A stretch of DNA of 64,000 bases. Source: Octopus vulgaris (lineage: Eukaryota). Position 1 is the stretch's first letter, and each line of letters starts with the position of its first letter. Below, piece after piece: positions 22,667 through 45,590 of the stretch. The position numbers were made by a program, and so were the translations under genes. The stretch lies in NCBI GenBank assembly GCA_951406725.2, contig OX597823.1, positions 42,904,001-42,968,000 on the forward strand, given 5' to 3'. The notes beneath the pieces were generated by a model that worked only from the letters and a program-made list of their open reading frames with translations, had not been told where the DNA came from and ran no database searches.

Positions 22667-23917
22667 TCAGATCATCACAACAGTTCTGTCAGAATTTTGA
22701 ATAAAGAAAACATATAATCAAATGTCATATTAAATTGAAATTTAATTATCAATTTACTTTCCCTGATTATCTATGACTTCCTTCCATCTATTTACAAGCT
22801 TTTTAATCACATCAATGCAAAACACTTTTTGATTTCACAGCGAAGAACTCTGAAATGTCAGTTTCGATCTCCTCCTGGCTTCAGAAAGTTATGTCCCCCA
22901 AATGAATCTCTAAACTACGAAACAAATAGTAGTCTGAAGGAACAAAGTCGGGAGAATAAGGATGAGTAATATTTTCCCAAACAAGCTCTTCGATCTTCTG
23001 TGATGTGATCTTTGCAGTGTGAGGTCGCGCATTGTCCTCGTGAAACATCACACATTTTCGATTCACTAAAGCGGGTCTTTTTTCTTCAAAGCTTGTTTCA
23101 AACTCTATAATTGCTGACAGTAGACATGAGCATTGATTGTTGCATTAGGTGGTAACAATTCAATGTGAATTACTCCTTTGTAATACCACCAGATAGAGTG
23201 AAGAACCTTTTTTCCATGAAGTTCTCTTCTCGGTTGTGGTTGAGCTTATTCCCTTTTACCAAACCACTGTTTACGTTTAACATTTCGATAGAAGATCAAT
23301 TTTTCGTCACCAGTCACAAGTCTATCCCTAAAGGGTGAAATGAATTCGCGAGAATGGAAAGAAGAGCAGATGTCAAATCGGGATTCGCGGTTGCGTTCGG
23401 ACAATTCATGAGGCACCCATTTTCCAAGTTTAGGAACCTTTCCAAGTTGTTGAAGATGACGATGAACTAAGCTTTATTGCCAATTCTTCAACTGATAATG
23501 CACGATTTTCTTCAAGTAATGCCTCAAGGAGCTTATCATCAAACTCAACTGGACGTCCTGTTCGATCTTCATCTTCAAGGCTGAAATCTCCACTTCTGAA
23601 TTTTGCAAACCATCTTCTGCAAGTCCTTTCATTCAAGCATTCCTTCCCATAAACTGAGTGTATGTTTCGCCTCGCTTCGACTGCATAGTTTCCTTTTTTT
23701 GTACTCATAAAGCATGATGTGCCTTAAATGCTCTTTGGGTACTTCCATGTTAGAAAGAAATTTTAATTCTATTATTCTGTAAAATAATATTTAATTAGTT
23801 TAAATGTACACAAATGCATAAAATAATTTTAAATTCCATTAGACATTCTAAAACACTATTAAATTTCATTCAGTTTTAAAAAAGGTAAAATCGGACAGAA
23901 CTTATGGGATGACCTGA
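22667..23917 (-). mobile_element. mariner (DD34D) transposon, full length ~1.25 kb, frameshifted transposase
   Basis: TIR TCAGGTCATCCCATAAGTTCTGTCCGA at the right end and a diverged copy at the left, both TA-flanked. Peptides MEVPKEHLRHIMLYEY, RRWFAKFRSGDFSLEDEDRTGRP, WVPHEL, LVTGDEK, HEDNARPH and YSPDFVPSDYYLF. Confidence 0.93.
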
Positions 23918-25175
23918 TATATATATTAATAATCAGAAAGAAAATATTGATTGTGAAAACAAATGTTAGGGTTATGGCGGTGTGTAAGATGAACCTTAGA
24001 AGATATTGCCAAAGCTTAGCTTGTAAAAATTAATATATGGTATTGCTTTGTTTCTTCCGCGACTATACCATTCCTGAATGAGTGTGTTTGGGAGACATCT
24101 GTACGCTTCAGCTAATAAATTTGTTTGCTGGTTCCTCTAAACAAGGGTCAATGATCTTGTCAATTCCATCGGTATAGTGCAATAGCTATGAGTGAGGAGA
24201 TAGACAATGGAGTCGAAAAAATAGCTTGTTTTGGGAACACACATCATGTAAAGGAAAAATGGGTTCTCTCATGACGAAATGCAAGAGAGGTCAGATATTC
24301 TAGTTCAAAACTGTGACCAGTGTATTAAGAATGATTAGATATTTACGTCTGTGTTTGGATTCTCCCTATTCAGCATTCATCCTATGAATTATTAACTATT
24401 TGGCAGATATTACCATGCAGCAGCATATAATTTGGTTATTGATTTCTGTAAATAAAAGCTTTTGACCTTGTCAGATTCATCGATCCGGTAGGGTAGCATT
24501 GTCTGAGGACACCTATAACCTGGTCGAAGCATCGTATTGTCTCAAAGTTCCCTGACACCGATGAACCAGTTAATCACGGGAATCATGAACACACATCTCT
24601 GATGAGGAAAAGCTGTGGTGATACACCAAAACGTATAAAGAATGCAGAGACGTTAAAGTTTTCGATTCTTGCGGTCCTGCATGGGCGTAACTATTAGCAG
24701 TATATATGGTATTGCACTAAAGAATATTGAGGGACCTTACGTTCATAAAAAAAATGGTAATTTAAATTTTGTGCATGTGCGTCGTAGTGCTAGTAGAATA
24801 TTAAAGTTAAACGGGAATTCTATGAAAGCCCTCACGGCAACTAAAGGTATTGACGTAAACACAGTCACTCAGAATATTAAAGGTTAATTGGAAAGCAAAA
24901 TATTGTAAACATGTGTATTAATAAGGTGTCGACTTTACTGAACTTTCTCACTGTCTATCGCAAAGAAAGAAATAGAAAGATATTGTGACAGAATACAGAA
25001 TTAATTGGGAAGTACTGATGTAAAATGTAACTTACATGAAAGTGAATGATAGGCTTCATTCCAAGCAGACTTAAATTCAAATATTATTTTCCTTAATTAT
25101 CAACTGCATCACATAGACACCACATACAAATACACATATGTATGCATGCACATCTATGCACATCGTGTATATGTA

Positions 25176-25248
<73 letters not shown>

Positions 25249-25280
25249 GTATAAGGGTGAAAAGGAACACACGAGTTGAT

Positions 25281-25673
25281 ATATATGAAAAAACAAGTCA
25301 AGATAGAAAATGCTAAAATAATTTTATAAAGAACATTTCAGTACCGGTTTCGGTCATTTTGAGACCTTTTCAACTGTAACGATTAAATAATTAAATTTAG
25401 AAAAATTAAAAGAAAAGTTTATTTAAAGGAATATTTGTACACAACGACCTCGAACACACAAGTGCAAACAAGGGAGACAGAGAAAGGCAGAATGCCACTT
25501 ATATTTGAACACTATACAAATATTCCTTTAAAAAAACTTTTCTTTTAATTTTTCTAAATTTAATTATTTAATCGTTACAGTTGAAAAGGTCTCAAAATGA
25601 CCCAAACCGGTACTGAAATGTTCTTTATAAAATTATTCTAGCATTTTCTATCTTGACTTGTTTTTTCATATAT
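25281..25673. repeat. Long inverted repeat (159-bp arms, 75-nt spacer) with a hammerhead-like motif in each arm
   Basis: 25281-25439 is the reverse complement of 25515-25673 with about 3 mismatches. Flanked by (TA)n. Confidence 0.9.
25339..25376 (-). ncRNA. Hammerhead-like motif with U3:A8 core (mirror copy on + at 25578-25615, GAAA mutated to CAAA)
   Basis: Minus strand: cag TTGAAAA ggtc-tcaaaat-gacc GAAA ccgg TA ctg. Confidence 0.65.
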
Positions 25674-25783
25674 ATATATATACACATATGTATATATATG
25701 TAGACATATATACATATATATATATAAATATACATATATATGCACATATATATGTATATACATGTATATATATAAATAGATAA

Positions 25784-25816
<33 letters not shown>

Positions 25817-25886
25817 CGCATATATGTATATATGCATATATATGCATATACATATATGTATGCATATATAAATATATATATATGTA

Positions 25887-25935
<49 letters not shown>

Positions 25936-25996
25936 AAAATAGAAGTTGAAAATCCACTAAGTATAATTGAAATATTTTTCATCACTATATTTAAAG

Positions 25997-26035
25997 CTTT
26001 AACCGGTTTCACAGTTTACACTGATTTTCAAAAGG
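25997..26035 (-). ncRNA. Hammerhead-like motif with U3:A8 core, different stems
   Basis: Minus strand: cctt TTGAAAA tcagt-gtaa-actgt GAAA ccgg TT aaag. Stem I is weak. Confidence 0.5.
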
Positions 26036-26399
26036 ACCAAATAGAAAGAGGTGGCTCATGTCGCAGCTGTGTTGCTTCTGACTGGTGTTTGAAGCTTCTC
26101 CTGCTTGTATAGAGAGTTCATCGCTCAACCTAGTATGTTTTGAATAGGATTTGAATATATATTCAAAACCTATATTAGTTTGAGCCATGAACACCTTATG
26201 AAAATATGGCAAGCTTCAAACACTAGTTAGAAGCAACCCGTCTTAATGAGAGTCACCCCGCAATCTTTGGTTGCTGGTGTTGATTTCTTTTGAACGTGAG
26301 TTAAACTGTTACACACTGTTATTATATATTGTTGTAGGTGTCCCCGCACAGGTGATCCAGGATCAGTGAAATTTTTAAATTGTTGAATTTCTGTCGTTG

Positions 26400-31378: not shown

Positions 31379-32249
31379 CGGAGATTTCAGCCTTGAAGAT
31401 GAAGATCGAACAGGACGTCCAGTTGAGTTTGATGATAAGCTCCTTGAGGCATTACGTGAAGAAAATCCTGCATTATCAGTGGAAGAATTAGCAATAAAGC
31501 TTGGTTCAAACCATACAACTGTTCATCGTCATCTTTAATAACTTGGAAAGTTTCTTAAACTTAGAAAATGGGTGCCTCATGAATTGTCCGAAAGCAACCG
31601 CAAATCCCGATTTGACATCTGCTCTTCTCTCCATTCTGGTGAACTCATTTCACACTTTTTGGATAGACTTGTGGCTGGTGACGAAATGTTAAACGTCGTA
31701 AACAGTGGTTTGGTGAAAGGGAAAAAATTCAACCGCAACCGAGAAGGAAACTTCATGGAAAAAAGATTCTTCTCTCTATCTGGTGGGATTACAAAGGAGT
31801 AATTCATCTAATGCAATAATCAATGCTCAGGTCTACTGTCAGCAATTAGAGCCGTTAAACCAAGCTTTGAAGAAGAAAAAACCGCTCTAGTGAATCGAAA
31901 AGGAATGATGTTTCATCAGGACAATTGGCAACCCCACACTGCAAAGATCACATCAGAGAAGATCGAAGAGCTTGGTTGGGTAAAAATTCCTCATCCATCG
32001 TAGTTTAGAGAATCACTTGGGGGGCATAACTTTCGCAAGCCAGGAGGAGGTTGAAATTGACATTTTAGACTTCTTCGCTTTGAAATCAAAAGAGTTTTAT
32101 ATTGATGGGATTAAACAGCTTGTAAATAGATGGAAGGAAATCATAGATAATCAGGGACAGTACATTGATGATAAAATTTCAATTAAATATAACATTTGAT
32201 CACTTTTTCCTTTATTCAAAATTCGGACAGAACTGATGGGATGACCTGA
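31379..32249 (+). mobile_element. mariner, 5'-truncated copy of the 22667 family
   Basis: Near-identical to the 22667 element (ggagatttcagccttgaagatgaagatcgaacagg; WVPHEL). Ends ggacagaactgatgggatgacctga followed by TA. Confidence 0.9.
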
Positions 32250-44982: not shown

Positions 44983-45590
44983 TTGTATAGAGGGCATTAT
45001 TACACATAAATGCCACACGCTAGGAGGGACTCTTAAAGTCATAACTACCAAATATAAACAAATTGTACCGAATGCAATTCTGAAAGCGAGTCATTTAAAA
45101 ACAGAATTTAGCTCCATATCACCTGTGATTTCGCAATTAACGCGTTATTCTCGTCCCTTGCTCTTCAGGAGACAACGTGCTTTTTCGGAACAAATTTCTT
45201 GTTAAGATTTCTTATTAAGATTTTATCCTATTTTTAAAATTTGTTCCGAAAAAGCACGTTGTCTCCCGAAATGCAATTCAAAAGAGCCCGCCACTTACAT
45301 AAATGTATGTTGGGTAAACATTTCCATATACTACGATGACGGCGACGTTTGTGCATCTGGTGTGATGTTTTTGTTTATATATGATATATTTTGGATTCGC
45401 TCCACTGAAGAGCAAGGGACGCGTATAACGCGTTAATTGCGAAATCACAGGTGATATGGAGCTAAATTCTGTTTTTAAATGACTCGCTTTCAGAATTGCA
45501 TTCGGTACAATTTGTTTATATTTGGTAGTTATGACTTTAAGAGTCCCTCCTAGCGTGTGGCATTTACGTGTAATAATGCCCTCTATACAA
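44983..45590. repeat. Long inverted repeat (186-bp arms) with nested inner inverted repeat; carries a hammerhead
   Basis: 44983-45168 is the reverse complement of 45405-45590 with few mismatches. Inner ~30-bp arms lie at ~45168-45198 and ~45237-45266. Flanked by (TA)n. Confidence 0.92.
45399..45462 (+). ncRNA. Type I hammerhead ribozyme, canonical core, all stems paired
   Basis: gctcca CTGAAGA gcaa-gg-gacgcgt-ata-acgcgtt-aa-ttgc GAAA tcac-ag-gtga TA tggagc. Predicted cut after 45456. Confidence 0.9.

Follow-up and report, generated by a model that had tools for sequence, protein, structure and literature searches.

How does a hammerhead ribozyme motif come to carry U3 and A8 where C3 and G8 are the rule, and does the altered pair still serve an active site? 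This question is raised by a 64,000-nucleotide stretch of Octopus vulgaris DNA (contig OX597823.1; hereafter the window), in which a sequence-only reading had pointed out three TTGAAAA cores, each with an ACCGGT palindrome. All three are present where that reading placed them. We consider it probable that they are inherited parts of two related families of Penelope-like elements (PLEs; families A and B), at whose 3′ ends a minimal type I hammerhead with a U3-A8 core is carried. In full-length elements this motif likely cuts weakly as a dimer; the truncated window copies are probably inert. The motifs are real, and the example is new; the variant and its setting have already been published.

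Table 1. Coordinates of the features discussed, in the window or, for the last two rows, as loci elsewhere in the genome
Feature	Position	Strand	Basis
Microsatellite (TA)n/(TATG)n on the left flank of the family A insertion	25140-25245		Sequence; flank type recurs in most of 30 loci
Inverted arm of family A insertion: PLE 3′ end (pseudo-LTR) with ~30-nt tail at about 25250-25279	25246-25439	minus	95.9% match to L245 5′ repeat
Copy 1: family A minimal type I hammerhead, intact	25339-25376	minus	Family pattern, folding, weak Rfam match
5′-truncated family A 3′ end, ending at (TA)n	25440-25675	plus	93.8% match to L245 over 240 columns; inverted repeat
Copy 2: mirror hammerhead, G12C at 25603	25578-25615	plus	Sequence, inverted repeat, folding
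(TA)n/(TG)n microsatellite separating the A and B insertions	25676-25930		Sequence
Family B PLE 3′ fragment, older; a short inverted piece lies at about 26160-26236	25931-26236	minus	Best copies 76-87% identical
Copy 3: family B hammerhead, U3 (26031), A8 (26026), ACCGGU, U17 (26001)	25997-26035, core 26031-26001	minus	Alignment with family copies
~360-bp tandem hammerhead family	L113-L119, L168, L194 (G000:C4:80857199-80857948), L200, L214-L243		Genome matches
Second C3-A8 family, older, A10.1-A11.1	L252-L266, L181, L204-L206		Genome matches

Three hammerhead motifs, one of them intact

The description of the motifs as otherwise well formed holds for copy 1, the sole intact one of the three, but not for the other two, which are damaged. 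Read along the minus strand from 25376, copy 1 runs in the order stem I CAG, core UUGAAAA, stem II, GAA, palindromic helix III ACCGGU, A17, and CUG. Stem I is the CAG/CUG pairing, U3 lies at 25373 and A8 at 25368, and stem II is GGUC-7 nt-GACC; G12-A13-A14 follow at 25351-25349, then A15.1-CCGG-U16.1 and A17 at 25342. Folding returns stems I and II as drawn, two copies form a dimer through ACCGGU, and the predicted cut falls between 25342 and 25341.

The mirror copy reads CAAA where GAAA is expected and thus departs from the hammerhead core; the changed residue, G12, is the catalytic base of the hammerhead, and the copy is predicted to be inactive. The accessible text of PMC7151607 places G12 in the hammerhead core consensus. 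Copy 3 has the same core as copy 1, with a U-U opposition (U10.1-U11.1) that opens stem II, and its stem I has decayed through three changes at 26034, 26036, and 26037 that are private relative to 34 other family B copies. U10.1, U11.1, and U17, on the other hand, are family traits (34/34, 32/34, and 32/34 copies, respectively). A reading of U10.1 as a base inserted ahead of a normal stem was rejected because C would then face U. Both families, and copies 1 and 3 within the window, have the core N3-UGA-N-N8-A ... GAA-A15.1/U16.1-H17, in which positions 3 and 8 form a Watson-Crick pair; the closing pair is G10.1-C11.1 in family A and U-U in family B.

The idea that such motifs are chance matches in AT-rich DNA draws on their low Rfam scores. 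Copy 1 matches Hammerhead_HH9 (RF02275) at 20.9 bits (E 0.008, with 351 nt searched) and copy 2 at 16.8 bits, both below the gathering score of 52, and for copy 3, the Rfam search returned no hammerhead match. Of the 254 matches from a scan of the whole window, the 150 listed were microsatellites and hairpins that resembled miRNA-type models, with no hammerhead among them. Against chance, our descriptor finds two matches in the window; 200 Markov-resampled windows averaged 0.005, and not one of them had as many as two. Genome-wide, the family A pattern has 1,845 exact matches and the family B motif 474 within two mismatches (87 exact), with zero control matches for either. We regard chance as refuted.

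Contigs of four runs over 25253-25514, a comparison that included two other organism labels, cover the motif and contain no alternative letter at or above 5% at U3 or A8; as assembled contigs, they are uninformative for expression or cut ends.

The motifs lie in truncated ends of Penelope-like elements

The three motifs do not represent three events. The family A insertion consists of a 236-nt truncated end and a 194-nt inverted, tailed end set back-to-back at 25439/25440, an arrangement that Craig et al. describe for PLEs (PMC8557442, accessible text). Its inverted arms share 161 nt at 98% identity with three differences, one of them G12C. We therefore rejected the mirror, the inverted arm of the same insertion, as independent support, and what had been presented as separate cases comes down to two inherited source states. 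Likewise, the "two different elements" of the sequence-only reading are two families, but not unrelated ones: both are PLEs, and 16 of 29 family B loci match the family A protein at 35-60% identity.

The assignment comes from longer copies elsewhere in the genome (2.8 Gb, microsatellite-rich, background ~35% GC). In longer family A copies, a reverse transcriptase (RT) domain (Pfam RVT_1, E 2.9e-8, above cutoff) is followed by a C-terminal GIY-YIG endonuclease (EN; 23.5 bits in L065, above cutoff, and 22.4 in L249, just below), the order that defines EN+ PLEs. A C-x4-C-x2-C linker joins RT and EN in families A and B, and the family A hammerhead lies 630-930 nt downstream of the RT/GIY-YIG frame. 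The full-length element L245 has the order hammerhead, tail, ORF1, RT/EN (broken in this copy), and hammerhead, its two hammerheads being direct repeats on one strand, 4,386 nt apart. Pseudo-LTRs, an inverted 5′-truncated copy, and a 30-40 bp tail are further PLE traits that we observe.

Used as a query, the family A arm found 1,262 candidates, and the 40 scored copies are 99% identical. Among loci chosen for whole motifs, copies end in (TA)n, 14 of 30 have a tail of roughly 30 nt, and most are 5′-truncated; the microsatellite to the left of the window insertion is likely its target. Family B, the older of the two, has its hammerhead observed at the 3′ position only, compared with both flanking repeats in family A. 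Judged by linker and microsatellite flanks, the two families likely belong to the Neptune (or Nematis) clade.

The window copies themselves have neither a coding region (no tblastn match to PLE coding sequence) nor a direct-repeat partner of their own family. We considered and rejected their classification as a non-LTR retrozyme, that is, as short non-coding tandem monomers, because they are truncated ends of a coding element.

Several other features were seen along the way. An upstream 436-codon frame of family A (L245:4864-3554, minus strand, and L247) has no Pfam match; in two copies it overlaps the RT/EN frame in a different phase, which may reflect a programmed frameshift. At L067:5766-3622 (minus strand), a 714-codon frame has RT-like and C-terminal GIY-YIG-like motifs by eye and no Pfam match; it likely represents another PLE clade. 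At L065:5636-9001 (plus strand), an open 1,122-codon frame that resembles a non-LTR retrotransposon adjoins a family A insertion. Within the window, positions 23433-23723 (minus strand) hold the decayed remnant of a mariner-type transposase (Pfam HTH_48, E 3.6e-13), which the neighboring frames 22881-23473 and 31542-32199 resemble by eye with no Pfam match. A long hairpin at 45158-45276, whose two strands each match MIR5512 weakly and well short of the gathering score, is probably a small inverted-repeat element.

Positions 3 and 8 covary between lineages

The sequence-only reading expected C3U and G8A to form a compensatory pair, and U3-A8 is indeed the family state in both families. Among the first 100 of the 1,845 family A matches listed, 96 keep the family letters at positions 3, 7, 8, and 12, one carries A8G, and three have lost G12. 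A genome pattern with the N10-24 spacer and GAAACCGGT fixed, which covers the ACCGGT helix III class only, gave 9,101 U3A8, 325 C3G8, 314 C3A8, and 215 U3G8 matches, against 99, 40, 48, and 46, respectively, for reversed-pattern controls. These counts are not numbers of events because copies are inherited, and many mixed-state matches are single-change copies of large families. The odds ratio of 44 for 3-8 covariation is computed over the same non-independent copies and so overstates the support. As had been foreseen, searches restricted to CUGANGA miss this class, about 96% of it in this genome.

Two abundant repeats deserve separate mention. One, at L099-L127, matches CTGATTA...GAAACCGGT without hammerhead-like stems I and II, so loose C3 counts are inflated. 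The other (L074, L081, L091, L096, and L097) is a U3-A8 family with U10.1-U11.1, a weak U/A-rich stem II, and A, C, or U at N17.

Stems I and II, which lay outside the search pattern, differ between families yet stay paired. Among the first 30 U3 matches listed (five stem groups), 3.17 of 4 stem I positions are paired, compared with 1.62 in cross-family swaps, and stem II has 3.23 paired compared with 2.41. Position 7 is free in the same 30 matches (A18 C8 U2 G2), and related repeats replace the ACCGGT palindrome of helix III by other palindromes. Stems that are rewritten with their pairing retained support selection on the fold.

The same observation weighs against the view that U3-A8 goes back to a single inheritance from an AT-drifted ancestor and survives as a neutral relic without current function. 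A single origin of U3-A8 is compatible with such a relic, as is the finding that core positions within families decay like their flanks, with no sign of copy-level selection. Families as little as 35-60% identical in protein nevertheless share the core even though both of their stems have been rewritten and still pair, which is unlike neutral sequence, and we judge a relic to be very improbable.

Predicted dimer folding and a competing U3-A17 pair

If the motifs act as inherited PLE hammerheads, as we favor, a read-through transcript would bring together the two hammerheads of a full-length or tandem element, and their ACCGGU palindromes would pair to form helix III. U3-A8 would then stand in for C3-G8 in organizing the active site, and the RNA would be cut after N17, trimming the element RNA. 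Dimer cutting has been proposed for PLE hammerheads (PMC4209133 and PMC6765202, accessible text). Folding agrees with its first steps: the ACCGGU self-duplex has a free energy of -8.3 kcal/mol, and the ACCGGU dimer is favored by 5-10 kcal/mol in cofolding of all eight U3-A8 motifs folded (8/8).

In family A, a competing pair between U3 and A17 is predicted to lower activity. Its probability is 0.72 in the family A monomer, and it persists in the predicted dimer fold; the values are 0.53 in a sister family and 0 to 0.11 in six other U3-A8 motifs, two of which have A17. This predicted pair is an analogue of the C3-G17 trapped state of hammerheads (PMC3884650, accessible text), so weak activity is likely, and it could damp cutting in family A. 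Minimal hammerheads of metazoan PLEs are reported to cut poorly in vitro. As for the window, in any transcript spanning 25246-25675 the two arms would fold onto one another, which makes these copies probably inert.

Mismatched intermediates have been amplified

Covariation is not strict. All four 3/8 states occur among 847 matches of a ~360-bp tandem, retrozyme-like hammerhead family; by hand count of the first 100 listed, 63 are U3A8, 24 C3G8, 10 U3G8, and 3 C3A8. A C3-A8 subfamily has been tandemly amplified, and a U3-G8 sublineage recurs. We masked positions 3 and 8 and built a midpoint-rooted tree from 41 monomers, in which C3A8 rows are oversampled; U3A8 is paraphyletic there, and the most divergent relatives are among its members. 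A C3A8 clade (7 rows, 94/91) and a C3G8 clade (13 rows, 88/97) are sisters (97/99). The shortest path in this tree suggests that the likely route was U-A to C-A to C-G; the alternative, CpG-type loss through G8A from C-G, costs one more step.

A second C3-A8 family, one subgroup of which has ACTAGT instead of ACCGGT, has 29 U3A8, 10 C3A8, 2 U3G8, 1 A3A8, and 0 C3G8 among its 42 matches, all counted. State labels in its tree of 15 rows clustered no more than shuffles did, and we use the counts alone. From these sequences, the 3-8 pair covaries at the level of lineages, but mismatched states can spread. The expectation of covariation at positions 3 and 8 is thus borne out in the dominance of U3A8 and in lineage-level covariation, but amplified C3-A8 sublineages set a limit to it.

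The claim of selection for catalysis fares similarly. Selection on the fold is supported by the re-paired stems, whereas catalysis specifically was overstated, given that C3-A8 has been amplified in two other families and that Poseidon PLE hammerhead mutants still insert. The last point comes from Frangieh et al. (PMC11167929), in whose accessible text hammerhead mutants left PLE insertion in vitro unaffected and no RNA-seq reads ended at the cut site; by analogy, cleavage may be dispensable for insertion here.

These findings bear on a further reading, in which the fold is retained for something other than catalysis, for example to be recognized by the PLE protein or to help the RNA fold close to where reverse transcription starts, and U3-A8 spread by AT-biased mutation under a loose pairing constraint. 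Both changes are transitions (C-to-T and G-to-A) in a ~35% GC background, mismatch lineages were amplified, insertion proceeds in vitro without cleavage, and the youngest and most abundant family bears the predicted U3-A17 trap. On the other hand, GA at positions 5-6, GAAA, and the N17 register are retained across families with different stems, even if the search patterns demanded them; the tandem family returned to C3-G8, contrary to an AT bias; and a PLE hammerhead does cut and depends on its 3-8 pair (PMC11167929, accessible text). We find a non-catalytic role unlikely, though a good deal less so than a neutral relic.

Catalytic hammerheads with likely weak dimer cutting remain our preferred account, and a broader picture may be drawn from it, albeit tentatively and with somewhat less than even confidence. 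The genome may hold a natural fossil series of an active-site pair, in which U3-A8 is dominant and ancestral in several PLE-linked families, C3-A8 and U3-G8 intermediates have been amplified, one family has gone from U-A through C-A to C-G, and the youngest successful PLE family carries a U3-A17 trap that may tune cutting down. Our literature search, which took in few subscription journals and no supplements, found no prior report of such a stepwise 3-8 walk or of a U3-A17 trap. If the picture is true, the compensatory evolution of a catalytic base pair could be replayed with natural sequences, and amplification would be compatible with weak or absent cutting. The amplified single-mismatch alleles are ready-made for asking whether PLE and retrozyme hammerheads must cut to spread.

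Comparison with known hammerheads and Penelope-like elements

The novelty implied by the sequence-only reading does not stand. As far as the accessible text of the papers compared here goes, Perreault et al. (2011; PMC3088659) report that U3-A8 covariation and the U10.1-U11.1 mismatch occur naturally and that U-U is tolerated; citing Przybilski and Hammann (2007), they give U3-A8 as active in vitro. Both non-canonical features are seen here, U10.1-U11.1 in family B; PLE dimer motifs are not covered in the section of that paper on these variants. Cervera and De la Pena (2014; PMC4209133) found ~1,300 U3-A8 PLE hammerheads with an adapted descriptor after a strict one had missed them. Further related literature includes PMC7229834 and bioRxiv 10.64898/2026.07.22.740005.

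The PAc Poseidon hammerhead of Anolis (Frangieh et al., 2024) is similar in that it also belongs to a PLE and lies close to the tail and to the start of the ORF, but it has a canonical C3-G8 core and belongs to another clade, Poseidon; single and double mutants of its 3-8 pair were made with C3G/G8C. Neptune and Nematis PLEs (Craig et al., 2021) share with the octopus families a C-terminal GIY-YIG domain, a DKG motif, and the CX2-5CxxC linker, as well as 5′ truncation, an adjacent inverted copy, a 30-40 bp tail, microsatellite targets, and a pseudo-LTR hammerhead. The linker is common to Neptune and Nematis, and the features seen here do not separate the two clades.

The closest counterparts are the U3-A8 hammerheads of Schistosoma mansoni Cercyon PLEs in Cervera and De la Pena (2014), which are likewise type I, minimal, located in PLE pseudo-LTRs, and predicted to act as dimers. 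They too occur mostly as single truncated copies, with opposite-strand pairs 100-700 bp apart. The small palindromic helix III described there for PLEs of fly, rotifer, shrimp, and mosquito is also alike. Unlike in Cercyon, however, U3-A8 forms the majority of the ACCGGT class in octopus (9,101 compared with 325), stem II has 3-4 bp instead of 7-8, family B carries U10.1-U11.1, and family A has an A17 that is able to pair with U3.
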